Virus record (IMG/VR): IMGVR_UViG_3300044675_005482
Span: 1-64,000 of that record
From: a virus
DNA: 64,000 bases
Strand: one strand, 5' to 3'
The notes under the pieces were generated by a model. It was not told where the DNA came from. It worked only from the letters and a program-made list of their open reading frames with translations, and ran no database searches. Both the position numbers and the translations under genes were made by a program. Every line of letters starts with the position of its first letter. The first letter of the stretch is position 1. Below are positions 3,749-49,011 of this stretch, piece after piece.

Positions 3749-4741
3749 ATGGATATTTCGTTCTCAACGCCTAAAGTAAACCTAACTAATAGCACGGGAT
3801 ACGGCTATGCAACGTGGCACATTATAGAATCTTTAAAAAAATTAGGACATAATGTTCCATTTCAAGATTATCGGGCACCAATCCAATTAAATTTTGCACA
3901 ACCATTTCAATATAAGCTACATAGAGATCAATATCAAATTAGTTATACTCCGTGGGAGTCAACAGTTGTTCCACAAAATTGGTTTCCAATGCTTGAATAC
4001 TGTGATGAAATATGGACAACATCGGACTGGTGTGCCAACGTATTTGAAGACAACGGAATGAAAAACGTAAAGGTTTATGCACACGGGATAGACTCTGTTT
4101 GGACTCCATTAAGAAGACAAGATGATGGAGTTATTAAATTCCTTCATGTTGGAGAACCAGCACCAAGAAAAGCTGGACAAATGGCTGTCAATGCCTTCAT
4201 AGAACTGTTTGGAAATAATCCAAATTATCATTTAACAATTAAGGCATATAACAATAACACAACAAGAATATTTAATAACTTTTCGGATAAAGAAATTATT
4301 GGTTTGCCAGATGCAATGTATAATAATATAACCGTTCTTCCAGATGAAATAGAAGAAGAAGATTTAATAAAACTTTATCATGACCACGACGTTTTACTGT
4401 ATCCAAGCTACGGAGAAGGTTTTGGATTTATCCCGCTTCAAGCTTTAGCAACTGGCATGCCAACAATTTGCACAGAAGCATGGGCACATTACGATAAATT
4501 TTTAGGACCACTGGCATTACGATCTACAATAGTAGATTCACCATTTTCAAATCTTCCTGGAAAAGTTTATGAGCCAAACTATAAACACCTACTTGAGCTT
4601 ATGAAAGATGTCGCTTTAAATTTTAATGCATACTCAGGTTTTTATTTTGCACAAGCCCCTAAAATACATAAAGAATACAACTGGGTCCAGTTGACTAAGA
4701 ATGCATTTGATCCAGTAATAAAAAAAATTAATAACCCCTAG
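3749..4741 (+). CDS. GT-B glycosyltransferase (GT4-like)
   Basis: GYG, PWE, RK, PSYGEGFGFIPLQALATGMP (E-x7-E/Q motif). Confidence 0.85.
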   Translation: MDISFSTPKVNLTNSTGYGYATWHIIESLKKLGHNVPFQDYRAPIQLNFAQPFQYKLHRDQYQISYTPWESTVVPQNWFPMLEYCDEIWTTSDWCANVFEDNGMKNVKVYAHGIDSVWTPLRRQDDGVIKFLHVGEPAPRKAGQMAVNAFIELFGNNPNYHLTIKAYNNNTTRIFNNFSDKEIIGLPDAMYNNITVLPDEIEEEDLIKLYHDHDVLLYPSYGEGFGFIPLQALATGMPTICTEAWAHYDKFLGPLALRSTIVDSPFSNLPGKVYEPNYKHLLELMKDVALNFNAYSGFYFAQAPKIHKEYNWVQLTKNAFDPVIKKINNP

Positions 4742-4818: not shown

Positions 4819-6753
4819 ATGTCAAAGACTATTGCTAACCCATATGAAAATTTTATTGCGCTATCTCGATATGCGAGATGGATTCCAGAAGAGAATCGTC
4901 GTGAGACATGGGGAGAAACAGTAGACAGATACTTTTCTTTTATGTTGGATCATTTAAAAGAAAATCACAATTACATTCCAGATGAGAAGCTTGTAGCGGA
5001 ATTAAAAGACGGTGTATTCCAAAGAAACGTCATGCCATCCATGCGCTCTGTAATGACTGCAGGAGCTGCATTAGAAAGAGACAACGTGGCTGGATACAAC
5101 TGCTCATTTGTCCCTGTAGATTCACCACGCTCATTTGATGAAACAATGTATATCTTGATGTGCGGCACTGGAGTTGGATTCTCTGTTGAATACAAGTATG
5201 TTAATAAGCTTCCTTCCGTCCCAGACTCATTTGATAAGACAGATACAGTTATTGTTGTTGAAGATTCAAAGCAAGGTTGGGCTAAGGCATACCGTGAACT
5301 ACTTGCATTGCTTTGGACAGGTCACATTCCAGCAATTGATGTTTCTAAGGTTAGACCTGCTGGTGCACGTCTTAAGACAATGGGCGGACGCTCATCTGGC
5401 CCACAGCCACTTGTAAATCTTTTCGATTTTACTATCGCAAAGTTTAAAAATGCAGCTGGTCGTCAACTTAAGCCTATTGAAGCACATGACATTATGTGTA
5501 AGATTGGTGAAGTTGTTGTTGTAGGTGGAGTACGTCGCTCAGCAATGATTTCTCTGTCTAACATTAATGATATTGAAATGGCAGCAGCAAAGTCTGGTAA
5601 CTGGTGGGAGAATAATACTCAACGTGCACTTTCAAATAACTCTGTTGCTTATTCACGCAAGCCAGAGATGGAACAATTTATAGCAGAATGGAAAAACCTT
5701 TATGATTCAAAGTCAGGAGAACGAGGTATATACAATGTGGCCGCAGCTCAAGCCCAAGCAGCCAAGTATGGAAGAAGAGATCCAGATATTCACTATGGAA
5801 CTAACCCGTGCTCAGAGATTATCCTACGTCCTTACCAGTTTTGTAATCTTTCAGAAGTCGTATTACGTGAAAAAGATACAAACGAAGATGTCGCAAATAA
5901 AGTACGCCTTGCAACAATCCTTGGGACTTGGCAATCAACCCTAACAGACTTTAAGTATCTACGTAAAATTTGGAAAGACAACACAGAAGAAGAAAGACTA
6001 CTTGGAGTTTCATTAACAGGACAATTTGGACACAAGTTTTTTTCTGGAAAGCAAGGTCTGGATAAGCTAGAGGACACTCTATCTAGACTTCGTGAATATG
6101 CTCGTGAAATAAATACAGAAGAGGCTGGGAAAATTGGGATTCCTGAGTCTGCAGCTATTACATGTGTAAAGCCTTCTGGAACAGTATCTCAATTGGTCGG
6201 GGTATCTTCAGGAATGCATCCATGGCATTCACCATATTACATTAGAACAGTTCGTGGCTCAAAGGGTGATCCAATTTCTACTTTCTTAAAGGAAGTTGGA
6301 ATTCCAGTTGAAGATGACGTAATGAAGCCAAATGACACTTACGTATTTTCATTTCCAGTAAAAGCTCCAGAAGGTGCAATTGTTAGAAATGACTTAACGG
6401 CACTTGATCACCTAAACACTTGGCTTGTTTATCAACGTGCATGGTGTGAGCACAAGCCTTCAATTACAGTATCTGTAAAGGAAGAAGAATGGATGGAAGT
6501 TGGAGCTTGGGTATATAAGCATTTTGACGAAGTGTCTGGAATTTCATTCCTGCCTCATTCAGATCACACATACAAGCAAGCGCCATACCAAGAAGTTGAT
6601 AAGGCAGAGTACGATGCACTTGTTGCAAAGATGCCAAAAGATATTAGATGGGAAGATTTATCTTTCTATGAGACAGAAGATGGCACTTCTACCAACGCCA
6701 CCCTCGCTTGTACTTCAGACGGAAATTGCGAGATTGTAGATATATCAGCTTAA
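4819..6753 (+). CDS. nrdJ: Class II (adenosylcobalamin-dependent) ribonucleotide reductase
   Basis: YNCSF, GTGVG, VVVGGVRRSA, TNPCSEI, CNLSE, TCVKPSGT, C-terminal CTSDGNC. Confidence 0.93.
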   Translation: MSKTIANPYENFIALSRYARWIPEENRRETWGETVDRYFSFMLDHLKENHNYIPDEKLVAELKDGVFQRNVMPSMRSVMTAGAALERDNVAGYNCSFVPVDSPRSFDETMYILMCGTGVGFSVEYKYVNKLPSVPDSFDKTDTVIVVEDSKQGWAKAYRELLALLWTGHIPAIDVSKVRPAGARLKTMGGRSSGPQPLVNLFDFTIAKFKNAAGRQLKPIEAHDIMCKIGEVVVVGGVRRSAMISLSNINDIEMAAAKSGNWWENNTQRALSNNSVAYSRKPEMEQFIAEWKNLYDSKSGERGIYNVAAAQAQAAKYGRRDPDIHYGTNPCSEIILRPYQFCNLSEVVLREKDTNEDVANKVRLATILGTWQSTLTDFKYLRKIWKDNTEEERLLGVSLTGQFGHKFFSGKQGLDKLEDTLSRLREYAREINTEEAGKIGIPESAAITCVKPSGTVSQLVGVSSGMHPWHSPYYIRTVRGSKGDPISTFLKEVGIPVEDDVMKPNDTYVFSFPVKAPEGAIVRNDLTALDHLNTWLVYQRAWCEHKPSITVSVKEEEWMEVGAWVYKHFDEVSGISFLPHSDHTYKQAPYQEVDKAEYDALVAKMPKDIRWEDLSFYETEDGTSTNATLACTSDGNCEIVDISA

Positions 6754-16946: not shown

Positions 16947-17450
16947 ATGTCTATACAAAAAGTAAAAATACCTTATAACGCTGAATTGTCTGTTAAAACA
17001 TTATCAGTTTCTGACGAAGTTGGTTTTAATGGTAACGTAACATTAGGTGGCAACATAAAGCTTACTGGGTCTCTAGATACGTCTAGCGGCTCAGTAAGCT
17101 TCACCGATGGAGTTCAGAGTAAACAAGGTGTCCCGTCTATAACAAAGATTAATCAAGTATATAATAACTACACTTTATCTGCTTCAGATTTAAGAGATTC
17201 TATAATCGAAATGAGTTTAAAAACTGCTGGAACAGTAACTATACCAGCAGACTCACCAGCATTGACTTTTCCAATAGGAACAACAATAGATATTATCCAA
17301 GCTAATAGCGGACAGATAACAATAGTTCCTGGAACTGGAGTAATTCTTAATGGAACCCCAGGATTTAAAATAAGATCACAGTGGTCTATTGTAACAATTT
17401 TAAAACGAGATGCGAATACCTGGTTGGTATTTGGCGACTTAACTGCGTAG
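16947..17450 (+). CDS. Fibre-associated structural protein
   Basis: TVTIP..FPIGT.I.IIQ..GQ..KIRSQWS..W..FGDL, a common phage fibre C-terminal module. Confidence 0.6.
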   Translation: MSIQKVKIPYNAELSVKTLSVSDEVGFNGNVTLGGNIKLTGSLDTSSGSVSFTDGVQSKQGVPSITKINQVYNNYTLSASDLRDSIIEMSLKTAGTVTIPADSPALTFPIGTTIDIIQANSGQITIVPGTGVILNGTPGFKIRSQWSIVTILKRDANTWLVFGDLTA

Positions 17451-17459
17451 GAGAACTAA

Positions 17460-19310
17460 ATGGGTAAAAAAGTTGGAATTCAAGCATCAGCCGCTGGAGA
17501 TTTTGAAGCGCCATTAGCGCCTCTTAATCCCGTAGCAACAGATGTTGGAACTAACAGACTTTTTAATAATGGAGCTGCTACAGTATCTTTTTCTATTGAC
17601 CCATTAAGTACAGTACCTACTGCCTTTGTAGTAACATCTAGCCCAGGAAACTTTACTGGAGAAGGATCAGCATCACCAATTACGGTTTCTGGATTACAAA
17701 GTAATGTAAATTACACATTTAAAGTAACTGCAAGCAATGCCAATGGAAACTCAGTAGAATCAGTTGCATCTAATCAAATATTGGTAACAACTGTTCCAGG
17801 TGTTCCAAGAACACCAAGCGCATCTTCTTCAACAGCAGATCAGGACACAGTGACATGGACTGCACCAGCAAATGATGGCGGAAAACCAATTGCAAGTTAT
17901 ACAGTTAGCTCAAGTGATACTTCTGCTCAATTACCAAAATCTATATTTAAGCAGATGTCTGGCGGTTCAGGACAAACAACTATTAACGTTGACGACAATG
18001 TTGGATTAGTAGTAGGCAATAAGGTTACTGGAATAGGAATTGGTACAAATGCAGCAATTCAAGCTATCAATGGAACAACAATAACATTAACTGTTGCAAA
18101 TTCTGGAAATGTTCCATTACAAGATGGTAAGTTTACAGATCATGCTGATACTCAAACAGGACCTATTTATTTAAATGCCACATCTCCATTAGTAATTTCA
18201 GAATTAGGTGGAACATCTCAGTCATATAACATTGTTGCTATTAATGCTAATGGAACTTCCGTTCCAGCAATTACATCACAAGTAACTACATTCTTTTCCC
18301 CACCACGCTTCTTTGGGCCACCAGCATTCTTTACGCCACCACAATTCTTTACGCCACCACAATTCTTTAGTCCTCCAAGCTTCTTTTCACCACCAAGCTT
18401 CTTTTCACCACCAGGATTCTTCTCTCCACCACGCTTCTTTTCACCACCAGGATTCTTCTCTCCACCACGCTTCTTCGGTCCTCCATTCTTCTTTGGGCCC
18501 CCAGTATTCTTTGGACCTCCAGTATTCTTTTCCCCACCTAGATTTTTCTCCCCACCAGGTTTCTTTTCACCACCAGTTTTCTTTGGTCCTCCACGATTCT
18601 TCGGCCCTCCAGGATTCTTCGGCCCTCCAGCATTCTTTACACCTCCACGCTTCTTCGGCCCCCCAGGATTCTTTGGCCCACCAGGGTTCTTCTCACCACC
18701 AAGATTCTTCTCACCACCTAGATTCTTCGGCCCACCAGGGTTCTTCTCACCACCAAGATTCTTCTCACCACCTAGATTTTGCATTCAAGAGGACACACCA
18801 GTTCTTACAAAAGACGGGTACAAAAAGGCAAAGGATATTTCTATTGGAGATACTCTATCAACACTTACTTTTGATGAAATAACACATGGAGCAGATAACT
18901 GTGCCTATGGGGTAGTTACAGTAGAGTGTTCAGAAATAGTAAACTCATGGTCTGTTGATGAATTAAAAAATTATAAGACGCTAGACTCCAAGGTTACTAA
19001 TATTTTAACTGAAACTCATTACAAAACTGTTGTTATTAATGACGATCAGACAAAAAGATTCTCTTTTAAAGAAGATGTTTTAATTCACAGAGACAATAAA
19101 TATGTTATTGTAACGGTTGAAAACCTTTCTGTAGGAGATTCGCTAGTTATTTATTCAGAAGGCTCTATTAGTTTAGTTCCAATAACTAGTTTAACATCTA
19201 TAAAAGAAAAAACAAATACAATTCTTTTCTATAGAGAGCCATACGGCATGATTGTTGCTGGAGGTATGCTTGCATACAATGGATGTCCAGTCCATATGTT
19301 GACTAACTAG
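17460..19310 (+). CDS. FN3-domain protein with 27x FF[S/G/T]PPx repeat and C-terminal Hint (Hedgehog/intein-like) domain
   Basis: FN3 motifs (GLQSNVNYTFKVTASNANG; WTAPANDGG.PI.SY); repeat aa 278-439; Hint block A CIQEDTPVLT.DG.K...ISIGD from C441; ENLSVGD; C-terminal AGGMLAYN. Confidence 0.85.
   Translation: MGKKVGIQASAAGDFEAPLAPLNPVATDVGTNRLFNNGAATVSFSIDPLSTVPTAFVVTSSPGNFTGEGSASPITVSGLQSNVNYTFKVTASNANGNSVESVASNQILVTTVPGVPRTPSASSSTADQDTVTWTAPANDGGKPIASYTVSSSDTSAQLPKSIFKQMSGGSGQTTINVDDNVGLVVGNKVTGIGIGTNAAIQAINGTTITLTVANSGNVPLQDGKFTDHADTQTGPIYLNATSPLVISELGGTSQSYNIVAINANGTSVPAITSQVTTFFSPPRFFGPPAFFTPPQFFTPPQFFSPPSFFSPPSFFSPPGFFSPPRFFSPPGFFSPPRFFGPPFFFGPPVFFGPPVFFSPPRFFSPPGFFSPPVFFGPPRFFGPPGFFGPPAFFTPPRFFGPPGFFGPPGFFSPPRFFSPPRFFGPPGFFSPPRFFSPPRFCIQEDTPVLTKDGYKKAKDISIGDTLSTLTFDEITHGADNCAYGVVTVECSEIVNSWSVDELKNYKTLDSKVTNILTETHYKTVVINDDQTKRFSFKEDVLIHRDNKYVIVTVENLSVGDSLVIYSEGSISLVPITSLTSIKEKTNTILFYREPYGMIVAGGMLAYNGCPVHMLTN
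18291..18776 (+). repeat. 27 tandem 18-nt units encoding FF[S/G/T]PP[R/G/S/Q/V/A/F]
   Basis: 486 nt = 27x18 with no indels; synonymous variation between units; nested near-exact 36-nt and 54-nt duplications. Confidence 0.97.
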
Positions 19311-19327
19311 ATATTAAATGCTAAAGT
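19299..19327 (+). promoter_or_regulatory. Sigma70-type promoter giving a probable leaderless mRNA for the oxygenase operon
   Basis: TTGACT-N17-TAAAGT (TG extended), 6 nt before ATG 19334, no SD. Confidence 0.7.
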
Positions 19328-19333
19328 AGTAAC

Positions 19334-19948
19334 ATGAATAAAATAGAAATATTCCCAGGAATATGGAAATTCGAGAATGTCTTTGACAAGTCATTTGATA
19401 TAGTAAATAAAATTGAAAAAGCTGTATCAAAAGGAGAATGCTCTTGGGCTAAAGCTCAAGTTGGTTTGGAAGAAACAGACACAGAATATAGAGACTGCTA
19501 CGACTTTAAGCTAAGCGACCTTGGAAAAGACCATAAAGTTTATAAGCATGTTTATGAATCTCAAAAGCCATACGTAGATGCATATTGTGATTACTACCAA
19601 ATAAAAATGGGATTTTGGGAATGGACCAATGTTGTTAAATATGGGCCAGGTCAATATTTTAAAGAGCATGCCGATCATGGCTGGTCTTATGTATCTACAG
19701 TTTCATTAGTATCTTATCCAAACGATGACTATGTTGGAGGAGAATTAGCTTTTCCAAAATTAAAAATATTTGAAAAGCCAAAGGCTGGGGATCTTTATAT
19801 ATTCCCATCTACTTATTTGTTTTCTCACGTAGCAATGCCAGTAAGGTCTGGCACTAAGTATTCATTTGTAACAATGCTAGATTATAATGATGATACTCAT
19901 ACTGTAGAGTATGAAGAATATATAGACAGAAAGTATGGTATTAAATAA
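19334..19948 (+). CDS. 2OG-Fe(II) oxygenase, prolyl-4-hydroxylase-like
   Basis: KY..GQ.F.EHAD; Y.NDDY.GGEL.F; FPS..FSH...V.SGTKYS. Confidence 0.9.
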   Translation: MNKIEIFPGIWKFENVFDKSFDIVNKIEKAVSKGECSWAKAQVGLEETDTEYRDCYDFKLSDLGKDHKVYKHVYESQKPYVDAYCDYYQIKMGFWEWTNVVKYGPGQYFKEHADHGWSYVSTVSLVSYPNDDYVGGELAFPKLKIFEKPKAGDLYIFPSTYLFSHVAMPVRSGTKYSFVTMLDYNDDTHTVEYEEYIDRKYGIK

Positions 19949-20646
19949 TGTTTTCTCCAAATGCGGAATATCTACATTACGGAATTGTTGTTTATAGAGA
20001 TGTTTTTACAAAAGAAATGGACCTTGTAAACAGGCTGGAAAAATCTTTAAGTAAAAGCGAAGGAAAATATCAGTGGAATCAATCTCAAACTGGGTATGCA
20101 CATACAGACCTTAAGTACAGAGATGCCCATGATTTTAAAATTAAAAGAAATGACGACGATAGCCTAATGCTATCAATGCAATATGTAAGCAAAGAAGACA
20201 GAAAAGAGGCCGAGCTTGAGCTAGAAAAAATTTGGGAAGACTCATATACTGCACAACTAAAGCCAGTAGAAGAATACCGAAATGCTTTTGGTCTTGCTCC
20301 ATTAAACTATTGGGAATCATTTAACTTTGTTAAGTATGGCCCAAACCAGCATTTCCAAGTTCATTCAGATCACGGATATTCATATATTTGTGTTCTTTCT
20401 TCAGTCGGATATATTAATGATGATTATGAAGGCGGAGAACTCTTCTTTGATAAGTTTAACTTAAAAATTAAGCCTAAGGCTGGAGACTTGTATCTTTTCC
20501 CATCGTCATATATATATTCGCACTCTGCAATGCCAGTAACTAGCGGAACAAAATATTCTATAGTAACAATGCTTGATTATCTTGAGGCCCCACATACTCC
20601 AGATTATCGTGAAATTGAAAAAAGATATACTGAAGGTTATGTATAA
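19948..20646 (+). CDS. 2OG-Fe(II) oxygenase, prolyl-4-hydroxylase-like (close paralogue of 19334)
   Basis: HSD; YINDDYEGGELFF; FPSSYIYSH; GTKYS. Confidence 0.9.
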   Translation: MFSPNAEYLHYGIVVYRDVFTKEMDLVNRLEKSLSKSEGKYQWNQSQTGYAHTDLKYRDAHDFKIKRNDDDSLMLSMQYVSKEDRKEAELELEKIWEDSYTAQLKPVEEYRNAFGLAPLNYWESFNFVKYGPNQHFQVHSDHGYSYICVLSSVGYINDDYEGGELFFDKFNLKIKPKAGDLYLFPSSYIYSHSAMPVTSGTKYSIVTMLDYLEAPHTPDYREIEKRYTEGYV

Positions 20647-21358
20647 AATACAGGCATACAGAGCAGCTGAAAATTACGCTACCTTAGCCCCTCTTGGGGT
20701 TAAGAGAGATTGGATGGAGCAAACACATGAAAGACATGCTTATACCTGTTTTCCAGTAACTCTTACAAATGGGATGGGCTGGAGTCTTTCTTTCCCAGAA
20801 GATATAACATTTGTATGGGATGGCAAATCTGATTCATCTAAAGATCATGTTAAAATTTTAGCTGGGCATAAATATTGTTATACAGAAAGAGCTAATGCAA
20901 CTATTAGCTTTAAAACTGGATTAACATTTAGAACAGAGGACAACGTTAGCTTACTAGGCATGCCAGCACCAAACTATTTTATTGATGGTGCTCAACCATT
21001 TACTACCGTAATTAGCACTTCATTTTTTACAGCAGAGTTTCCAGTAGCATGGAGAATTACAAAACCATATACCCCAATAACAATTCCAGCAGGATACCCA
21101 GTAATATCACTATTGCCAATATCTCTTAAAAACTTACAGGATTCAGAAATAGATATAGTCCCAATTAAGGATATGCCAAGATCCCCATATGCTGATCAAT
21201 ATAATCAAACAGACCATATTAAGTTTGTATCAAAAGTAGCTGAAGAAGGAAAATGGACTAATTTTTACCGTGATGCAGTGGACTATATGGGAAATAAATT
21301 AGGACAGCATGAAGTTAAAAGCTTAAAGCTTAAAGTTAATGGAGGAGATAATGCCTAA
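20639..21358 (+). CDS. DUF6065-like protein
   Basis: KRDWM..T..RHAY.CFP...NGMGW; WRIT.P; IPAG.P....PI; start moved to ATG 20639, which overlaps the upstream stop. Confidence 0.6.
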   Translation: MYKIQAYRAAENYATLAPLGVKRDWMEQTHERHAYTCFPVTLTNGMGWSLSFPEDITFVWDGKSDSSKDHVKILAGHKYCYTERANATISFKTGLTFRTEDNVSLLGMPAPNYFIDGAQPFTTVISTSFFTAEFPVAWRITKPYTPITIPAGYPVISLLPISLKNLQDSEIDIVPIKDMPRSPYADQYNQTDHIKFVSKVAEEGKWTNFYRDAVDYMGNKLGQHEVKSLKLKVNGGDNA

Positions 21359-22091
21359 AATTAAATTTGGGTCTGCAAGGCCATACAATAATCAAGAAGA
21401 ATTTAAAGAGTTGGCTCCAGCTCCTATTAAAAAATTTATGCCAGAATGGTGGAATAAGGCAACAAAATACTGGCTTGGTGACGATGGAGAATACATTCCA
21501 GCTCAATATCCTCATCAAGAGCCAGAAGAAAGATCACTTGGTTTTAAATCATGCCCAGCATTATTAGATGTGTTTAGTACTGGATACACACTGCTTACTC
21601 CTACCGACATAATGTTTGTTCAATATGAAGGCGAACCTTATATGAAAATTGATGAGCAGTTTAAAGATTTTTGTGATGCAAGGCATGCAATGCCACAATT
21701 TGTTAATCCAGCAGGATACCATGCAAAACATTTTCATTGGTGGCCAAATTGGGGAATAGAATTGCCTACTGGATATAGCGCATTAATTACAAGCCCGTTA
21801 AATAGGTTCGATTTACCTTTTTTAACCGTGGCTGGTATAATTGACAGTGATAGGTATCCTATGCCAGGATTAACTCCATTTTTCCTAAAAGAAGGATTTT
21901 CTGGACTAGTCCCAAAGGGAACTCCGTATGCACAGATTATTCCAATTAAAAGAGAAGACTGGGAGTCGGAGCACATTTATTATACAACACAACAGATGTA
22001 TGATAGGCATGAAGAAACAACAAAAAAATATAGAGTCGCTTTCGGCGGCATTTATAAAATGAAAACGTGGATAAAAAAGAATTATAACTAG
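21351..22091 (+). CDS. DUF6065-like protein (distant paralogue of 20639)
   Basis: MPEWW; KSCPALLD..TGY; PLNRFDLPF..GIIDSD; VPKGTPYAQIIPIKRE.W; GGAGG SD before ATG 21351. Confidence 0.55.
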   Translation: MPKIKFGSARPYNNQEEFKELAPAPIKKFMPEWWNKATKYWLGDDGEYIPAQYPHQEPEERSLGFKSCPALLDVFSTGYTLLTPTDIMFVQYEGEPYMKIDEQFKDFCDARHAMPQFVNPAGYHAKHFHWWPNWGIELPTGYSALITSPLNRFDLPFLTVAGIIDSDRYPMPGLTPFFLKEGFSGLVPKGTPYAQIIPIKREDWESEHIYYTTQQMYDRHEETTKKYRVAFGGIYKMKTWIKKNYN

Positions 22092-22100
22092 GAGATAAAA

Positions 22101-22826
22101 ATGGCATTTGAAAGTACAATTAGCGCAGACAATATACAAAACTATGACGCTTTAATAGAAGGCAAAAACGTAAGAACTGCTAGAAAGTCTATTACGCCGT
22201 CTGGATATTTTGGTGAGGGTCCAGAAATGATTGGCGAAATTGAAAACTTTCTTACAGAAGAAGAATGCGACTTCCTCGAAGACTTTGCTAGAAACAATAA
22301 GATTTGGGATGTTACAGAATCTCATTACAATGAAAATGGAACAATAATCTATGATCACCGTCCATGGGAAAATAGAGTTGCAACTCTTAACACATTAGAG
22401 AAAGCAAATCCAGAAGTAGTTAAAATGCTACGTGAAATTATTGCAAGACTTAAGCCAGAAATTGAAAAGTTTTTTAATGTGGCTGAAGCAGAACCAACAA
22501 ACCCAGCAATTGTAAGATGGCCAGTTGGCACTTTTCAGTTTCCGCATGCAGACAAAGAGCTGCATGAGGGTCCAGATGCTGGAACGGAAAATGATTTTCC
22601 ATGGTATGACCTAGGAACCATATTTTATTTAAACGATGATTTTGAAGGTGGAGAGCTTCATTTCCCTAGACAGCAAATTGCATTTAAGCCAAAAAGACGT
22701 GCAGTATACTTTTTCCCAGGAGACAAGAACTACATTCATGGAGTAGACAAAGTAACGGCTGGAACAAGATATACATCACCATGGTTTTGGACAATTAGAC
22801 AACTAACAAAGGAAAACAATGCTTAA
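22101..22826 (+). CDS. 2OG-Fe(II) oxygenase, prolyl-4-hydroxylase-like
   Basis: ENFLTEEEC; PHAD; YLNDDFEGGELHF; YIHGV..V..GTRY. Confidence 0.9.
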   Translation: MAFESTISADNIQNYDALIEGKNVRTARKSITPSGYFGEGPEMIGEIENFLTEEECDFLEDFARNNKIWDVTESHYNENGTIIYDHRPWENRVATLNTLEKANPEVVKMLREIIARLKPEIEKFFNVAEAEPTNPAIVRWPVGTFQFPHADKELHEGPDAGTENDFPWYDLGTIFYLNDDFEGGELHFPRQQIAFKPKRRAVYFFPGDKNYIHGVDKVTAGTRYTSPWFWTIRQLTKENNA

Positions 22827-23559
22827 TCCAGAATTAATAGAAAAGTATCCTGGCATCAAGGAGTGGAAAGATGACGTATACACAATAGAAAATTTTATAA
22901 CGGAACAAGAATCTGAAGCTATGATTAAATATTTAGAATCTTTAGTTAGCAGTGGCAGATTAAAATGGAATCAGATTTCTTTTTACGACTCATTTGCTAT
23001 GGGGTTTTGGGACTCAGATCCAACTCTACCAGAATTTGGATTGCCAGAAGATTACTTTAACAGATTAAAATTTAGATTTAAAAAAGCTGGAGAAGATATT
23101 TTTGGTCATAAGTTTGCAGAGATTAGCTATCATGCACAGAAGTGGATAGAAGGAGCATTTGCTGACTTCCATTCAGATAATTCTAAAGATGGAAAGCCAA
23201 CAGCATTTGAAAGAAGTCGATATGCTGGATTCTTGTATTTAAATGATGATTTTGAGGGTGGAATATTAAACTTTCAACACTATGACATTGCAATAAAACC
23301 TCAAGTTGGACTTATAGCAATATTTAAAGGCGGTCATGGAAACGAGCATGAGGTTACTCAAGTTAAAAATATTAAACGTGAAAGATACACCATAGGTTCA
23401 TTTTGGGATGATGCTAGAATGGAATATACAGATGAGCAAAGACAACGCTGGGCAGATGAACTAGCTGAAACTAGAAAAGAACAAGACGTCCAATATGATG
23501 AGTGGGCTAAAGATAAAGAAATTGGCAATGTTCCAGTTTATAAAGGAAAAGGTGAATAA
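22819..23559 (+). CDS. 2OG-Fe(II) oxygenase, prolyl-4-hydroxylase-like
   Basis: FHSD; YLNDDFEGG; NEHEV; ERYT. Confidence 0.9.
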   Translation: MLNPELIEKYPGIKEWKDDVYTIENFITEQESEAMIKYLESLVSSGRLKWNQISFYDSFAMGFWDSDPTLPEFGLPEDYFNRLKFRFKKAGEDIFGHKFAEISYHAQKWIEGAFADFHSDNSKDGKPTAFERSRYAGFLYLNDDFEGGILNFQHYDIAIKPQVGLIAIFKGGHGNEHEVTQVKNIKRERYTIGSFWDDARMEYTDEQRQRWADELAETRKEQDVQYDEWAKDKEIGNVPVYKGKGE

Positions 23560-24224
23560 TGTATATATATGCTAAGGATATAGAAAAAGATGTTGAAATA
23601 CTAGAAGGAAAAATATTCATCTTCAAAGATGCAATTAGTAATACCAGTTTAATTCACGAAGAGCTAGACAGCATAGATGAAAATTACGAAGACGAGACTA
23701 GCCCAAGACAAATTGGTCCATGGATTGAATGGAAATCAAATGATGATGACACAGTGTATGGAAAGCAAAAGGTTGGACTATTTACTTTTAGCAAAGAAGT
23801 ATCGAAGATGTCATTTGGAGACAAGATGGCCAAAGACCTTTGTGACACTGTGTTAAAGTGTGCAACAGGTTTATCTGAGGCATATTTTAAAACATTAAAT
23901 ATAGAAGAAGTACCACACCTTCCAGAAAGATTTGAAATAAAAGTTTACGATACTGGCACCGACATGGGAGCCCATTATGATAGACATCCATTTCCAAACA
24001 ACGAAACAATTTTGTCTGCAGTAATTTATCTAAATGATGATTACGAGGGCGGAGAGCTTCATTTCCACAACCAAGATATTACAATTAAGCCAGAAGCTGG
24101 AACGGTTATATTTTTCCCATCTACTGAAGATTTTACACACTCTTCAAAGAAAATAGAGTCTGGTAAAAAACATGCAATCCCGCTATTCTTTTACAAAAAT
24201 CCAGAAAATCCACAAAATAATTAG
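23559..24224 (+). CDS. 2OG-Fe(II) oxygenase, prolyl-4-hydroxylase-like
   Basis: MGAHYD; YLNDDYEGGELHF; FPS..FTH; SGKK. Confidence 0.9.
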   Translation: MYIYAKDIEKDVEILEGKIFIFKDAISNTSLIHEELDSIDENYEDETSPRQIGPWIEWKSNDDDTVYGKQKVGLFTFSKEVSKMSFGDKMAKDLCDTVLKCATGLSEAYFKTLNIEEVPHLPERFEIKVYDTGTDMGAHYDRHPFPNNETILSAVIYLNDDYEGGELHFHNQDITIKPEAGTVIFFPSTEDFTHSSKKIESGKKHAIPLFFYKNPENPQNN

Positions 24225-24232
24225 GGGGACGT

Positions 24233-25972
24233 ATGTCTTATCAATTAAAGGTTATACAAGATAACCCAATAGGGTTTTGGCCTTTAGACGAATCTTCTGG
24301 GACTATTGCCGCAGATAGATCTGGTTGTGGAAACAATGGCGCTTATGTTGGTACCATGATTTCAAATATGCTTCCCTTAATTCCTGGAGGACAATCAGGT
24401 ACAAAAATAACAAACACCTCTTATGTTACTTTACCAATATTAAACAATTACTATGGCGCTACAACAACTGCTGGAATGGCCACAAAGTACACAAGCGATA
24501 ATGATTTTACGCTAGAGCTGTGGATATCTCCACAAATTTATTCAACGTCTATTACCCCATTACTTGCAGATGTGACAAATAATATAGGGTTATTTTGGGA
24601 AAACGGAGACATAGTATTTAAGGTAGATTCTCAAGAGGTAAGGTGTCCAGTAACATATTCTAAAAAGTCACTCCACCTCGTTGGTCTATATACAACAAAT
24701 TCAATATCTATTTATATAGACGGAGTACTTGCAAGCTCTAAATCAATTGTGGACTTTAAATTTACAAATACAAACTTTTCTTTAAATATAGGACCAACAA
24801 CGATATCTTCAGATTCGTTTATAGTAGATGCACCAGCAGTATACAGATATTCTTTGCCATATAAATCAATATTAAAGCACCATGTAGATGGCAGCTTTTC
24901 AGGATCAGCAATACAAGTTGTTTTCCCAGACGAAGGAGTTTTATTTTCTGGCACAGACGCATACATTAAATCTCAATTTGAATATACATACCCAATAAAA
25001 AAACAATGGGAAGACCTGGTTGATGAAAACACTTATTACGATCCAATAAATAAATATATATCTTTCTATCCATCTACTGGGCCAAAGACATTTGTTTATG
25101 AGGACTCATTTTTATTACCTTCACAAATTGGAATTGCTACATCTAAAATTGAATGGAGAAACGATTTAGGTATATCTGTTGAGTCAAGCTCAGATGGGAC
25201 TACGTACACTGCTTGTGTAAATGGGGAGCCACTACCTCAATATAAAGTTGGATCTTTTTCTTCATCTGGAACCGTATACTTTAGAATAACAATGACAACT
25301 GCAGATTCAAGTAAGTTCTTGCCAAGATTATCATTTTTTTCTATTACATTTTATTCCGATAGAACTCTGTATGCTGACAACTATGGAGATTCAATTTCTT
25401 CTGCATCTAACTATAATTTAGGGGCACTAAACTACCCAGTACTTTCAAGAAACTACATGGGCGGGATAAGGCCAGAAAATGGAACTGGATTTGATATTAA
25501 TACCCTGTCATCAATAAAGTCATTAGAGATGATATATACACCAATAGCAACAGGCGTTGCAAATACCTTGATCCATGTCCCAGATTCTCCAATATCAGAA
25601 TTAAGTTGGACATCTGCTGGAGTAATTACTAAAACCAATATAAGCAAAATTTATATTAACAATGTCGACATTTCTGCACAAGCTAATATATCCAATTATT
25701 TGGTTGCTGGACAGCCACATCACATTGTAGTAGTCTTTACAAGCCCAGTGTCTACTAAAATAAAGATAAACTACAAGACTTCTGGTGGAAGCAATAACCT
25801 ATATAAGAATATTGCTCTATATCAAAAAGAAATAACTCAAGCTATATGCGCTGAGCATTATAATCTTTATACTGGAAGGCCATCAGCAAGCATATCTGAA
25901 AGCGTCATAACCCTGACAGATCCTGCAGTAAGTTATTATAATAACGACTGGGTTGTTATCCAGTCAGTATAA
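24233..25972 (+). CDS. LamG/concanavalin A-like domain virion protein
   Basis: DNPIGFWPLDE.SG..A.D.SG; FTLELWI; HLVG..IYIDG; D.PAVY. Confidence 0.75.
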   Translation: MSYQLKVIQDNPIGFWPLDESSGTIAADRSGCGNNGAYVGTMISNMLPLIPGGQSGTKITNTSYVTLPILNNYYGATTTAGMATKYTSDNDFTLELWISPQIYSTSITPLLADVTNNIGLFWENGDIVFKVDSQEVRCPVTYSKKSLHLVGLYTTNSISIYIDGVLASSKSIVDFKFTNTNFSLNIGPTTISSDSFIVDAPAVYRYSLPYKSILKHHVDGSFSGSAIQVVFPDEGVLFSGTDAYIKSQFEYTYPIKKQWEDLVDENTYYDPINKYISFYPSTGPKTFVYEDSFLLPSQIGIATSKIEWRNDLGISVESSSDGTTYTACVNGEPLPQYKVGSFSSSGTVYFRITMTTADSSKFLPRLSFFSITFYSDRTLYADNYGDSISSASNYNLGALNYPVLSRNYMGGIRPENGTGFDINTLSSIKSLEMIYTPIATGVANTLIHVPDSPISELSWTSAGVITKTNISKIYINNVDISAQANISNYLVAGQPHHIVVVFTSPVSTKIKINYKTSGGSNNLYKNIALYQKEITQAICAEHYNLYTGRPSASISESVITLTDPAVSYYNNDWVVIQSV

Positions 25973-26033: not shown

Positions 26034-26375
26034 ATGGATATCAAAAAGCTAAATCATAAAGTATTAGATGAAGAGTCAACTCTTGGAATATATGTCTGGG
26101 AGATGCCCGACGGAAGATGGATTGGAGACGACGATGGCAACTTTCTTTCGATCACGTCAAAAAAAGGCAATAGATCCAGAATCGATGCTTTGGCTAGAGA
26201 AGTACGCACATTCGGTATATACGAAGGTGGGCCTAAATTTCTTTCCGCTAGGCGGAAAATCAGCGACGAAGAGTTTGAGCATCAGAAGCAAAGACTCGAT
26301 TGGGGATTAGTTCCAGATCCACTGGATATTGGAAACTATAAAGATGAAATGAAAAAACTAAGAGGTGGAAGATAA
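26034..26375 (+). CDS. Hypothetical protein preceding the portal
   Basis: TGGACT-N17-TAAAAT upstream; TAATG coupling to the portal. Confidence 0.75.
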   Translation: MDIKKLNHKVLDEESTLGIYVWEMPDGRWIGDDDGNFLSITSKKGNRSRIDALAREVRTFGIYEGGPKFLSARRKISDEEFEHQKQRLDWGLVPDPLDIGNYKDEMKKLRGGR

Positions 26376-27961
26376 TGCAATTTATTGAAGATGAAGATGG
26401 ATCAGATAACACAGTTAGCATTTCTAATGTTGCAGACTGGATGAAATTTACTGCACCGTCAGCAGTTGCAGATACAGACCCTTTTAATGTAGACGGAGAT
26501 GACCTAAAAAAGATTAACGGTCTTGGATCAACTTTCCGTAGAAAAATGGGTAGAGATATCCAAAAAAGATTTATTGGACAAGAAGGAACTGGAACACAGC
26601 AGAACCTATTAGCACAAGCCGTCACTGGCTATGCAATGTTTGACCTAATTGAGCCACCGTACAACCTTGAGTATCTTTCAAAAATTTATGAAGTATCGCC
26701 ATACAACTATTCAGCAATTAATGCCAAGGTCTCTAACATTGTTGGTCTTGGATATTCATTTATTGAAACAAGCAAAACAAATGACGCCTTAGACACCATA
26801 ACAGATGAAAAGCAGTTAGAGCGAGCAAGAAAAAAGATTAATAGAATTAAGCAGGATCTAGAAGAATGGCTAGAGTCAGTAAACGAAGAAGAAACATTTA
26901 CTGAGACATTAATAAAGGCCTATGTAGACCTAGAAGCAACTGGCAATGGATATATTGAAATTGGTAGAACAGTAGCTGGAAATATTGGATACATTGGACA
27001 TATTCCAGCAAAGACAATGAGAGTACGCAGATTACGTGATGGCTTTATTCAATTGCTTTACGGAAAGGCTGTTTACTTCCGCAACTTTGGAGACACCGAA
27101 ACAGAGAATCCTATTGCTGGTCAAGAAGATCGTCCAAATGAAGTTATTCATTTAAAGAAGTACACTCCTACAAATAATTATTATGGAATTCCAGACATTA
27201 TTGCAGCACAAAATGCAATGGCTGGAAACGAGTTTGCTGGCAAGTATAACCTAGACTACTTTGAAAACAAGGCGGTACCAAGATATATTATTACAGTAAA
27301 AGGAGCAAAGCTTTCAACAGAGTCAGAAAGAAAATTACTTGAATTTTTCCAGGTAGGTCTAAAGGGCAAGAATCATAGATCTCTATATATTCCGCTACCT
27401 CCAGATTCACCAGACTCAAAGGTTGAATTTAAGATGGAGCCAGTTGAGGCTGGAGTTCAAGAAGGCTCATTTAATACATACAGACTTTCCAACAGAGACG
27501 AAATCCTCCTTGCCCATAGAGTCCCAATTAATAAAGTTGGAACCCCAGCTGGAGTTAATTTAGCGGTTGCTAGAGATGCTGATAAAACATTTAGAGAGCA
27601 AGTCTGTGGACCAGCTCAAAATAATTTAGCCAAGAAATTAAATAAAATTATTGAAGAAAAGACAGATGCACTTCTTCTTAAATTTAATGAGTTGACCTTG
27701 ACTGACGAAGATACTCAATCTAAAATTGATGAGAGATATTTGCGTATGCAGGTAATTACTCCTAATGAGGTTAGAATTAGAAAGGGTATGATTCCTATTG
27801 AAGGTGGAGACCAGGTAGTGGATTTAAAGGCTGATGCAGCCGCTGAACAATCTGCCCAAGCTGGTAAAACTAGAGCCAGAGATTCCGAAAGATCCGCCGC
27901 TTCCCCAGATAAATCTGGCGAAGGCAGAAATGCAAAAGGCGACGGACGTCAGGTAGGATAA
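26375..27961 (+). CDS. Portal protein
   Basis: DLEATGNGYIE; EVIHLK..YYGIPD; YFENKAVP; AHRVP; ITPNEVR..GM.P..GGD. Confidence 0.92.
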   Translation: MQFIEDEDGSDNTVSISNVADWMKFTAPSAVADTDPFNVDGDDLKKINGLGSTFRRKMGRDIQKRFIGQEGTGTQQNLLAQAVTGYAMFDLIEPPYNLEYLSKIYEVSPYNYSAINAKVSNIVGLGYSFIETSKTNDALDTITDEKQLERARKKINRIKQDLEEWLESVNEEETFTETLIKAYVDLEATGNGYIEIGRTVAGNIGYIGHIPAKTMRVRRLRDGFIQLLYGKAVYFRNFGDTETENPIAGQEDRPNEVIHLKKYTPTNNYYGIPDIIAAQNAMAGNEFAGKYNLDYFENKAVPRYIITVKGAKLSTESERKLLEFFQVGLKGKNHRSLYIPLPPDSPDSKVEFKMEPVEAGVQEGSFNTYRLSNRDEILLAHRVPINKVGTPAGVNLAVARDADKTFREQVCGPAQNNLAKKLNKIIEEKTDALLLKFNELTLTDEDTQSKIDERYLRMQVITPNEVRIRKGMIPIEGGDQVVDLKADAAAEQSAQAGKTRARDSERSAASPDKSGEGRNAKGDGRQVG

Positions 27962-47076: not shown

Positions 47077-49011
47077 ATGACAGATACTTTAAACGCTGGA
47101 GGCAAGATTGTACCTAAAGATCTTGCTGTTGCTACGCAACCAGATGTAGATAAAAATTTTTTTACAGCATCCGTAAAGGGTTTAAAGCTTTCTAAAACTT
47201 ATGCAATTCAGTTTCAATGGGTAGAGTCAGATGGCAAGTTAAGCGATTGGTCTACCTCTTATGTTTTTACAACATCAAATGAATCTGCTCCTGCAGTTCC
47301 ATCATCAACAGTTCCTTCAACTGGAAGCGGTGGAATTCCAGTTACTCTTTCTACTTTCCCAACAAACGCCAAGAGAGTAGACGTTTATGTAATAGGTGGA
47401 ATATTTGGCATAGGTAAAGTTGCTTATTCATTTTCAACAGCTGGAACAAATATTATTTCTGCGCCAGGCGGAACTTATGTTGTTGAACTAAGATCAGTAT
47501 CCCCAACTGGAGTCACAAGTACAGTTGGAGAAAGCTTTACAATTACTGTTGCAGATATTGGTGGCGAAGTAATTGCAGCACCAACTAACCCTAATGGATT
47601 TACTGCTTCAAGAATCCTTGCTGGCGTACAGCTAAGCTGGGCTGGAACATATGCTAACGGAACATTTACGGGATTTGAAGCAATTAAAGTTTTTGCTGGA
47701 ACCTCAACAAGTGCAACACCTGGAACATATATTGAGGTTGGAGTTTTAACTGGCAACAATGTAAAAAATACAATTACAATTCCAGTAGATGGAACATATG
47801 TTAAATATGGTCAAGCAACTTATCTTCATGCAGCCGCAGTAAATAAAAATGGAACTGTTGGAACAATACAGGCAAACGTTGCTTCAGTTGCACTTGGGCC
47901 AGGAAAAGCAACAGATGCAGACATTAATGATGGCGCAGTTGTTATTTCTAAATTGGCATCAGATGTTCTTACAGTTGGAAACTTAAAAGCTGGAGACATT
48001 AATGCTACATCTTATATTCGTGCTGGGTCAAAGGCAGTTGATGGAACTGGAGCAAGAGTAGAAATTTCTAGCTCAACAATATCACAAAGCGGATCAAATG
48101 TTTTACCTGGATTTTATATTTATGGATCAACAGGCACTCCAGTACTTTCTGCGCCACTTGGCGGAGGATTATCTATTACAGGTTCTGGAACATTTACTGG
48201 AAATATTAGCGGAGCAAGCGGAGAATTTACAGGAGACCTTGGAGCAAGTGGCGGTAACTTTACAGTAAGAAGCGGAATCATGACAGCGCTTGCTGGCTCA
48301 ATTGGCGGATGGGTAATTAATAGCCAAGCATTAAAAAATTCAGCAGTAACGTTCCCAAACATTATGCTTGACCCAAGCAACGCTAAAATTGAATTAAGAC
48401 AAACGGCATCTAATTCAAGCGATACTGGAAATTCTATAAAAATGGACACATCTTCTGGATTAAGAATTGGAACTAGCGGATCTCCTAAATTTACAGTAGA
48501 TATGGCTGGCAACATGGTTGCACAAGATGCAACGCTATATGGAAAAATTATTACAACTGGAACAAGCCCAGTCGGGGCTTCTGGTACATTAACCATAGAT
48601 TCTGGATTTATTGATCATACAAGCTATTTGTATATTAGATCAGGGTCATTTGCTGCAATAAGCGCAAATGGTTTATTTCAAGCAAGTGCCGCTGACGGTA
48701 CAGACGCATCTAACCTATATCTTTATCCAAACGAAGTAATTATTGGAACTGGTGGCGCTACTGGAGATGTACAATTAAGAATGGGAGCGGTTGGAACCCC
48801 ATCTGGATTTACTGGGTGGTATGCAAACGGAATAGATATAAATCTTGAGCCAACAGGTAACAATGGTACTATTGGCAGAACAGTTACATTATTTGCTGGT
48901 CAGCTTAGGGCTGGCAGAGCTTTGCATACAGGTGCGGCAACTTCATCTGCTGGAATTGAAGCAGTAGTGTTTGGTTCAAATGTTGGCGACCTTTACTTTA
49001 GTACGGCGTGA
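47077..49011 (+). CDS. Tail fibre/spike protein
   Basis: FN3-like N-terminus; Gly-rich beta-helix (GTFTGNISGASG; GSIGGW). Confidence 0.7.
   Translation: MTDTLNAGGKIVPKDLAVATQPDVDKNFFTASVKGLKLSKTYAIQFQWVESDGKLSDWSTSYVFTTSNESAPAVPSSTVPSTGSGGIPVTLSTFPTNAKRVDVYVIGGIFGIGKVAYSFSTAGTNIISAPGGTYVVELRSVSPTGVTSTVGESFTITVADIGGEVIAAPTNPNGFTASRILAGVQLSWAGTYANGTFTGFEAIKVFAGTSTSATPGTYIEVGVLTGNNVKNTITIPVDGTYVKYGQATYLHAAAVNKNGTVGTIQANVASVALGPGKATDADINDGAVVISKLASDVLTVGNLKAGDINATSYIRAGSKAVDGTGARVEISSSTISQSGSNVLPGFYIYGSTGTPVLSAPLGGGLSITGSGTFTGNISGASGEFTGDLGASGGNFTVRSGIMTALAGSIGGWVINSQALKNSAVTFPNIMLDPSNAKIELRQTASNSSDTGNSIKMDTSSGLRIGTSGSPKFTVDMAGNMVAQDATLYGKIITTGTSPVGASGTLTIDSGFIDHTSYLYIRSGSFAAISANGLFQASAADGTDASNLYLYPNEVIIGTGGATGDVQLRMGAVGTPSGFTGWYANGIDINLEPTGNNGTIGRTVTLFAGQLRAGRALHTGAATSSAGIEAVVFGSNVGDLYFSTA

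Follow-up and report, generated by a model that had tools for sequence, protein, structure and literature searches.

The stretch of DNA considered here (hereafter the window) comprises the first 64 kb of a 113,997-bp virus record in IMG/VR, IMGVR_UViG_3300044675_005482, which is rated 100% complete. The DNA has a GC content of about 37%, and near-identical DNA has been found in lake-water and freshwater metagenomes, one of the samples being different from the probable source. At positions 17460-24224 the virus carries a gene for a protein with an array of short Phe/Pro repeats and, directly behind it, a cluster of seven genes encoding five 2-oxoglutarate (2OG)-Fe(II) oxygenases (OX1 to OX5) and two DUF6065-type proteins (DFA and DFB). 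These genes, and the two that flank them, all lie on the plus strand. An original prediction, made from the sequence alone, held that the repeat is the dedicated substrate of the enzymes. The architecture of the block and its distribution among related viruses are described below, followed by the interpretations that they allow.

The repeat protein (616 amino acids; 17460-19310) combines FN3 domains, an FFxPPx array and a C-terminal Hint-fold domain, an architecture that the original prediction had described correctly. Its N-terminal part (17460-18290) holds two FN3 domains, recognised in two stretches by the Pfam fn3 model (E 6.7e-10, and 1.4e-8 in a second scan). The array that follows (18291-18776; amino acids 278-439) consists of exactly 27 contiguous, in-register FF[S/G/T]PPx units and is the proposed stalk and substrate. 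Position 3 of the units is Ser in 14, Gly in 10 and Thr in 3, and position 6 is free. The array contains 54 Pro, as had been claimed, and 55 Phe, one more than had been counted. Tandem Repeats Finder reports a period of 18 with 26.8 copies. The codons of the array differ synonymously between units, which points to selection on the peptide rather than on the DNA. At its end the array reads PPRF and then C, that is, a single Phe followed by the Cys that opens a C-terminal domain of 177 amino acids. Two further open reading frames (ORFs) predicted over the array (18218-18784 on the minus strand and 18313-18882 on the plus strand) were rejected as artefacts of the 18-nt periodicity.

The Phe-Cys junction and the C-terminal domain behind it (18777-19310) were assigned to the Hint fold by alignment, by profile matches in the PDB, and by an AlphaFold2 (AF2) model compared with known structures in Foldseek. 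By sequence alone the match is weak (Hint_2, E 0.012), and a search of the PDB with the single sequence of this region returned nothing significant. A profile of 16 relatives matched mini-inteins and a bacterial intein-like (BIL) domain in the PDB (E 1.7e-4 to 1e-3). The AF2 model (pLDDT 84.6) gave Foldseek matches at E of about 1e-6 with TM-scores to the target of 0.6-0.78, the best being BIL2 of Tetrahymena BUBL, a Clostridium thermocellum BIL domain and Hedgehog (1at0), along with many mini-inteins. When the repeat protein was compared with isolated phages, only the Hint part matched, to a protein of Phage NCTB annotated as 'tail protein, contains intein domain' (30% identity). Cys1, which stands directly after the last repeat, is invariant in 16 of 16 aligned relatives, as is the terminal Asn. 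In the clade of the window, block B reads SxxE rather than TxxH, and in the window the domain ends in Y-N-G-C plus seven amino acids instead of HN, the penultimate His being missing. A distant relative (L101) reads T-E-T-H in block B, and this and three other distant relatives (L026, L100 and L325) keep the terminal HN and then end, as H-N-K-stop. The terminal His-Asn and the Cys/Ser/Thr C-extein of a splicing intein were looked for at the end of the window's protein and are absent, and nothing follows that could act as an extein. Because the end motifs come without an extein while Cys1 and the terminal Asn are kept, the domain is best regarded as a Hedgehog/BIL-type C-terminal module and not as a splicing intein.

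The seven genes of the cluster begin 24 nt past the stop codon of the repeat gene and overlap or are separated by no more than 10 nt. OX1 to OX5 all pass the Pfam model PF13640 (2OG-FeII_Oxy_3), with 30-52 bits against a curated cut-off of 27. The tight packing and the five oxygenases originally reported are confirmed. OX1 (19334-19948; E 1.3e-10; H112, D114, H165 and K175) resembles prolyl 4-hydroxylases (P4H), and its best match in the PDB is the P4H of Bacillus anthracis (6e-8). Its P4H-like paralogue OX2 (19948-20646; E 6.3e-13) also matches phrog_61 (E 6e-25), and its HSD...H...K motif was read from its own sequence. OX3 (22101-22826; H149, D151, H213 and R223) is the most conserved oxygenase of the cassette, is present in all cassette variants, and matches P4H and prolyl 3-hydroxylase 1 (P3H1) in the PDB. 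OX4 (22819-23559; H118, D120, H177 and R189) is P4H/P3H-like, with human P3H1 as its best PDB match (8e-10). The P4H-like OX5 (23559-24224; E 1.3e-13; H139, D141, H194 and K204) matches a PKHD-type hydroxylase and the P4H enzymes of B. anthracis and of Paramecium bursaria Chlorella virus 1 (PBCV-1). In such enzymes, a Lys or Arg about 10 residues beyond the distal His binds 2OG. The HxD...H motif and this Lys/Arg are invariant across the orthologues of OX1, OX3, OX4 and OX5 (nearly so for the Lys of OX5).

The profiles of OX1, OX3, OX4 and OX5 lie closest to solved protein hydroxylases (E 1e-10 to 1e-5). The nearest of these are B. anthracis P4H, human P3H1, PBCV-1 P4H, the mimivirus and human lysyl hydroxylases, and PiuC/PKHD-type hydroxylases. 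None of the OX proteins matches an AlkB or TET/JBP family above threshold; the one hit of this kind, of OX5 to Tet_JBP, has an E of 0.006 and misses the cut-off. Judged by their motifs, all five enzymes are predicted to be catalytically intact and of the prolyl-hydroxylase type. The affinity to prolyl hydroxylases that had been proposed is thus supported, all five families lying closest to protein prolyl and lysyl hydroxylases, with OX2 placed as a paralogue of OX1.

DFA (20633-21358) and DFB (21339-22091) lie between OX2 and OX3. Both had been called DUF6065-like, and they are indeed related, with the refinement that DFA alone is a Pfam DUF6065 protein (PF19541, E 6.3e-33, 114.7 bits against a cut-off of 26.6). 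DFB is a distant paralogue with no Pfam match and is recognised through phrog_7084 (E 7e-31), which DFA also matches weakly. The two proteins align at about 15% identity and have an invariant W, C, G and P in common. An AF2 model of DFA (pLDDT 92.8) matched dUTPases in Foldseek at E 1e-4. With VIA-align, the same model reached Z-scores of 9.3-10 to seven dUTPases; the top ten matches were all dUTPases and were followed by herpesvirus dUTPase-related proteins and dCTP deaminases. On the strength of this model, DUF6065 is predicted to have the jelly-roll fold of trimeric dUTPases. DFA is without the motif III Asp residues of dUTPases. In DFB, the stretch GIIDSD...AQIIP aligns with dUTPase motifs III and IV (local hhalign alignment to bacterial dUTPases, E 0.06, not significant alone). 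A joint profile of DFA and DFB searched against PDB sequences returned dUTPase alone, at E 0.15. The genome holds no canonical dUTPase, as the Pfam dUTPase model PF00692 found nothing in it at E up to 10.

DUF6065 has also been found in bacteria. Of 301 Alphaproteobacteria that were sampled, 30 have it as a conserved gene in single copy, and at least three of these carry it fused, at its C-terminal end, to a Cupin_8/JmjC 2OG-oxygenase domain (L338:8181-9812 in Novosphingobium sp. Fuku2-ISO-50, and also L345 and L348). This fusion is an independent link suggesting that DUF6065 works with 2OG oxygenases. The gene that follows the Novosphingobium fusion encodes a PMT-type protein O-mannosyltransferase. 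Stand-alone bacterial DUF6065 genes have no consistent neighbours, those seen being RTX, PQQ dehydrogenase, MFS, TadE, MCP and CoA-transferase genes. DFB-like (phrog_7084) genes are kept in haloarchaeal myoviruses of the HF1/HF2 type (L105 and about 48 other haloarchaeal virus records). In Halorubrum phage HF2 the gene (48119-49003) stands between ribonucleotide reductase and tail genes, which include one for a ConA-like virion protein, and no oxygenase is nearby. A DFB-like gene in cyanophage Sf-CH8 has no Pfam-recognisable oxygenase adjoining it.

The co-occurrence of repeat gene and enzyme cluster, which had been anticipated, is strongly positive in both directions and holds across divergent backbones and gene arrangements. 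When IMG/VR was scanned with a DNA pattern for four FFxPPx units, more than 120 loci were found. For 57 distinct repeat genes, 2.5 kb or more of the downstream sequence was visible, and an oxygenase gene lay within 3 kb in 50 of these and a DUF6065 gene in 48. In the seven exceptions, either the gene was the first copy in an arrangement of two, or the locus had little sequence past it. In the reverse direction, clusters were fetched through OX3, and all 39 distinct clusters with visible upstream sequence had a Phe/Pro-repeat ORF directly upstream (38 identified by script and one, L288, by eye). The pairing persists with short repeat proteins that have neither FN3 nor Hint, with inverted oxygenase genes, with FFPP or FFP repeats, with two repeat genes flanking one cluster (L101), and in phages whose portals are only 46-58% identical. 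Cluster size in the relatives ranges from three to nine oxygenases around a near-constant core of an OX3-like enzyme, an OX1/2-like enzyme and DFA, and DFB is often absent. In GTDB representative genomes (one per species), the only genuine FFxPP arrays lie on two contigs, both with the same module; the other 32 of 34 pattern matches were rejected as junk ORFs in simple repeats. This pairing recurs in considerably more than a hundred related viral contigs, which makes the fibre the most likely target of the enzymes.

The same association was seen within a single phage lineage. Sister phages were fetched through the LamG_3 gene that follows the cluster, and at least 8 kb of visible upstream sequence was required for the counts. 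Among those with the same LamG-portal backbone, 31 had both the repeat gene and the cluster, 15 had neither and none was mixed. In the slot upstream of the LamG and portal genes, the small gene up1, the repeat gene and the cluster are either all present or all absent, and in the latter case unrelated FN3 or fibre genes take their place. On a tree of LamG proteins the state of the cassette changes three to four times, and both traits switch together each time. One cassette-negative phage (L064) encodes one oxygenase, a distant one, along with two DFB-like proteins. Lone DFB-like genes (26-35% identity) were also seen beside other fibre-like ORFs in the cassette-negative sister phages L041, L058, L063-L065 and L097.

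The repeat proteins of the relatives vary in a characteristic manner. The number of units ranges from about 5 to 35 and differs (25 against 28) even between near-identical phages. The units themselves take the forms FFxPPx, FFPP, FFP and YFPP, with FFPP and FFP replacing FFxPPx in distant relatives, and what is invariant is FF followed by P or PP. Ser at position 3, found in just 14 of the 27 units of the window, gives way to A, G, T or V in relatives or is absent. The N-terminal FN3 part is missing from some relatives, and some repeat proteins comprise only 100-140 amino acids, with little beyond the repeat. At the C-terminus, not all members of the family have the Hint domain, and many relatives carry unrelated tips in its place. 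These tips are a Cys-rich knot (short C-termini with 8-16 Cys, disulfide-knot-like, in L291, L308, L315, L316 and L327), 'WVRVGGxWK' repeats (L300 and L304), or another domain. The Hint domain of the layout originally described is thus present here, optional elsewhere, and in this clade lacks both the His of block B and the penultimate His. This pattern of variation is that of a modular fibre with anchor, stalk and tip, in which the chemistry of the stalk is tied to the enzymes, and it argues against a precursor of ribosomally synthesised and post-translationally modified peptides (RiPPs).

The surroundings of the block are those of a virion, as had been proposed. Upstream of the repeat gene lie genes for a 1398-amino-acid tail fibre protein, for a 1007-amino-acid virion structural protein (phrog_5838), and for up1 (167 amino acids; 16947-17450). 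The C-terminus of up1 resembles the tips of tail fibres, with PHROG matches to the C-termini of minor tail, tail fibre and virion structural proteins (E 1e-12 to 2e-6), and in nearly all related loci up1 immediately precedes the repeat gene. Downstream of the cassette lie the genes for the LamG_3 protein, a small conserved protein, the portal, the head protease and the capsid protein. The LamG_3 (ConA-like) protein (24233-25972; Pfam Laminin_G_3, E 5e-9) is the conserved anchor downstream of the variable cassette and is kept in 93 related loci. Its gene is the last ahead of a terminator/promoter pair, and no convincing terminator was found from the repeat gene through the cluster until past it. 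Since the first convincing pair comes only there, the enzymes are part of the late structural transcription unit. The pair, at 25913-25965, lies between the LamG gene and g26034. It consists of a strong hairpin (25946-25965), terminator-like on both strands, and an overlapping sigma-70-like promoter (25913-25942, 11 of 12 matches), and with it the fibre transcription unit ends. Contigs from a metatranscriptome library (five bins; DNA carry-over possible) match exactly, covering parts of OX2 and spanning the DFB/OX3 junction, which is a weak hint that the cluster is transcribed.

Further features of the genome and its relatives were noted. The portal (26375-27961) is 57-58% identical to the portals of Streptomyces siphophages of about 130 kb, despite the 37% GC of this phage, and the only isolate homologues of the LamG protein (23-28% identity) are in these same siphophages. 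No match to isolated phages was found when the region was searched with megablast or DFA with tblastn, and these searches turned up no cultured phage carrying the cassette. Two contigs with the same phage module were binned into metagenome-assembled genomes (MAGs) of Bacteroidota (L109, a 78-kb contig in a Bacteroidia MAG, and L115, in a Bacteroidetes MAG). The two bins are a weak hint of a Bacteroidota host, or a product of binning by base composition. A glycosyltransferase gene (phrog_2170; 3749-4741) and a ribonucleotide reductase gene (4819-6753) lie just upstream of the structural block. Outside the window, at 71.5-80.6 kb of the record, is a glycosylation island with a carbamoyltransferase gene, three GT61 genes and an NTP-transferase-HAD gene, and two more PF13640 oxygenase genes follow right after it, at 80.8-83 kb.

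The reading favoured here, with somewhat more confidence than doubt, is that the block is a swappable virion-fibre cassette in which a hydrophobic Phe/Pro stalk is hydroxylated by a dedicated battery of enzymes. From the domain architecture, the intact catalytic motifs, the folds and the co-occurrence that were observed, we infer each of the following chemical steps. Late in infection, the repeat would be hydroxylated by the oxygenases in the cytoplasm. The resemblance of the enzymes to their family points to proline as the target, which may be modified at more than one position of its ring, and phenylalanine may perhaps be modified too. That more than one position or residue is involved (for example 3- and 4-hydroxylation, or Phe) is suggested by the presence of several distinct, conserved paralogues. 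With Phe making up one third of its residues, the unmodified stretch would be very insoluble. Hydroxylation could render the stalk both soluble and stiff, in the form of a polyproline-II-type rod that might reach about 50 nm (estimated from 162 residues with a rise of about 3.1 A). The DUF6065 proteins may act together with the oxygenases as a substrate adaptor, an assembly factor or a second-step enzyme, and the glycosylation island could decorate the hydroxylated fibre. The Hint domain may cleave at the Phe-Cys junction and remove itself, like the self-cleaving C-terminal chaperones of phage fibres; alternatively, cleavage might leave an activated C-terminus for ligation, as in BIL/Hedgehog chemistry.

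Several observations weigh against a hydroxylated Phe/Pro stalk. The genome contains three PF13640 genes outside the block, which shows that such enzymes are not all tied to the repeat, and FFP offers fewer obvious target positions than there are oxygenase paralogues (three to nine per cassette). In sister phages, haloarchaeal viruses and a cyanophage, DFB-like genes are unaccompanied by oxygenases. Judged by its motifs, the Hint domain of this clade, without the block B His and the penultimate His, makes self-cleavage uncertain. Hydroxyproline was not detected in the virions of PBCV-1, which encodes the sole characterised viral P4H (PMC7019647). The LamG tree offers three independent pairs (p 0.25), which are too few events for significance, and because the repeat gene and the cluster adjoin each other and are transferred as a unit, linkage by itself could explain why they switch together. 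Such block-wise inheritance can also account for the co-occurrence if the cluster belongs to the fibre cassette but modifies something else, either another virion protein (up1, the LamG protein or the large tail fibre) or a protein of the host's surface or cytoplasm, for example a translation factor, with the repeat protein as a mere structural neighbour. In keeping with this idea, up1 is no less constant as a neighbour than the repeat gene, the genome has the three further PF13640 genes outside the block, and the bacterial relatives of the enzyme family include an EF-Tu prolyl hydroxylase (PDB 4iw3, matched by OX5). However, besides the enzymes and up1, the FF-P(P) repeat is the sole sequence feature that is invariant over all cassette variants. 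It persists even in proteins of 100-140 amino acids that are little more than repeat, and enzymes of this clade classically act on Pro-rich repeats. Another target is therefore regarded as unlikely, with a chance that is still appreciable.

A different possibility is that the cluster hydroxylates a base, a nucleotide, a free amino acid or another small metabolite, or acts on DNA, with the dUTPase-fold proteins binding a nucleotide and the link to the repeat being incidental. The predicted dUTPase fold of DUF6065 (Z of about 10) and the GIIDSD motif of DFB are no less compatible with a nucleotide substrate than with a protein, and to this extent the dedicated-substrate proposal, though backed by the co-occurrence, leaves room for a nucleotide-related role. 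The genome's lack of a canonical dUTPase points the same way, as do the DFB homologue adjoining ribonucleotide reductase in HF2 and the DNA-repair or 2OG-related roles proposed for such oxygenases in the cyanophage literature (PMC3037559). Against this, the cluster sits in a late structural operon and not in a replication module, it is absent from sister phages that share the LamG-portal virion backbone, and its oxygenases group with protein hydroxylases and not with AlkB or TET/JBP. DFA is also without the acidic residues of motif III, PF00692 detects nothing in the genome even at E 10, and inactive, repurposed dUTPase folds are known in herpesviruses, whose proteins of this kind are among the structural matches of DFA. 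On balance, a nucleotide or metabolite substrate appears improbable. A RiPP-like multi-core precursor had also been suggested, whose hexapeptides would be hydroxylated, excised and perhaps cyclised to small Phe/Pro peptides. In its favour, many identical short units stand beside tailoring enzymes, and a Hint domain could in principle supply thioester chemistry. No leader, linked protease or cyclase was seen among the cassette genes with Pfam and PHROG, however, and no spacer separates the units. The protein begins with FN3 domains and, in the family, carries modular C-terminal tips, both typical of fibres; it lies in a virion operon, and its copy number drifts as in structural stalks. The RiPP or cyclic-peptide idea thus finds no support and is very improbable.

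The idea that a viral hydroxylase acts on a repetitive protein of the virus is already known from PBCV-1 and mimivirus. PBCV-1 encodes a small P4H-type 2OG oxygenase (PDB 5c5t, among the matches of OX1, OX3 and OX5), and Pro-rich tandem repeats in viral proteins have been proposed as its substrates. Pro-rich repeat peptides as substrates of this enzyme are attributed to Eriksson et al. (1999), as cited in PMC7019647. In PBCV-1, however, there is a single enzyme, the substrate genes are not adjacent, and the role in vivo is unknown. In the cassette described here, three to nine paralogues are hard-wired beside one Phe/Pro-repeat gene, together with DUF6065 partners. T4-like cyanophages carry phrog_61 oxygenases of the same PHROG and Pfam families, at about 27% identity and with several paralogues per genome. 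Their function is unknown, and they have been treated as metabolic or DNA-repair genes (PMC3037559). The cyanophage enzymes have no known substrate gene, whereas here a candidate substrate lies immediately upstream.

Comparisons can also be made with collagen, with plant extensins and other hydroxyproline-rich glycoproteins, and with Hedgehog proteins. The nearest solved relatives of the oxygenases belong to collagen-type systems: the P4H of B. anthracis (3itq/5hv0), the mimivirus collagen lysyl hydroxylase/glycosyltransferase (6ax6), and animal P4H, P3H1 and lysyl hydroxylase 3 (LH3). Collagen resembles the proposed system in that a repetitive fibre protein is hydroxylated and thereby stabilised or decorated. 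In contrast to collagen, the phage repeat has no Gly at every third residue (Gly occurs in FFxPPx only at some x positions) and is one third Phe, so that a triple helix is not expected, and neither a protein disulfide isomerase nor a peptide-substrate-binding domain is present. Extensins likewise have short tandem Pro-Pro repeats that form an extended rod after hydroxylation, and the phage genome has three GT61 genes. The analogy, on which an extensin-like S/G/T-P-P core had been proposed, is nevertheless loose. The array contains no Ser-Pro(3-5) and at most two consecutive Pro, its conserved core is FF plus P(P), and no enzyme of the Hyp-arabinosyltransferase type is linked to it. As in Hedgehog and BIL proteins, the C-terminal Hint fold opens with a Cys straight after the cargo; unlike them, it has SxxE for TxxH in block B, a YN-GC end and no C-extein to splice. 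By function, it can be likened to Peptidase_S74, the self-cleaving C-terminal chaperone of phage tail spikes and fibres.

In the literature searched, no mention of DUF6065 was found, and no phage fibre with Phe/Pro repeats coupled to hydroxylases was described. Searches on hydroxyproline fibres of phages and on Hint domains in their tails likewise yielded no account of this system. There is a substantial chance that the fibre chemistry is genuinely new. A broader proposal, which is possible but held only tentatively, is that the cassette represents an undescribed class of virion fibre, common in freshwater phages, in which a poly-hydroxylated aromatic/proline rod is made by a dedicated battery of enzymes. 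Under this proposal, DUF6065 would be a repurposed dUTPase fold serving as a general partner of 2OG protein hydroxylases in phages and bacteria, and the Hint domain would activate the C-terminus of the stalk for cleavage or covalent attachment.

In aquatic phages, multi-copy 2OG-Fe(II) oxygenase genes rank with the most common genes that lack an explanation, and as a rule they are classed with metabolism or DNA repair. For such oxygenases the cassette provides what appears to be the first candidate substrate to be genetically hard-wired, and the question of their substrate therefore becomes directly testable. It also gives DUF6065 a predicted fold and a functional context with 2OG oxygenases, and it shows a Hint domain used as the tip module of a fibre. 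A rod of Phe and Pro that may be polyhydroxylated is a possible unusual biomaterial. The cassette is exchanged between sister phages, and its place is the end of the structural operon concerned with host recognition, so that a bearing on host range or adsorption in lakes is probable. If the broader proposal proves to be right, at least some of the abundant '2OG-Fe(II) oxygenase auxiliary metabolic genes' of phages would in fact encode enzymes of virion maturation.

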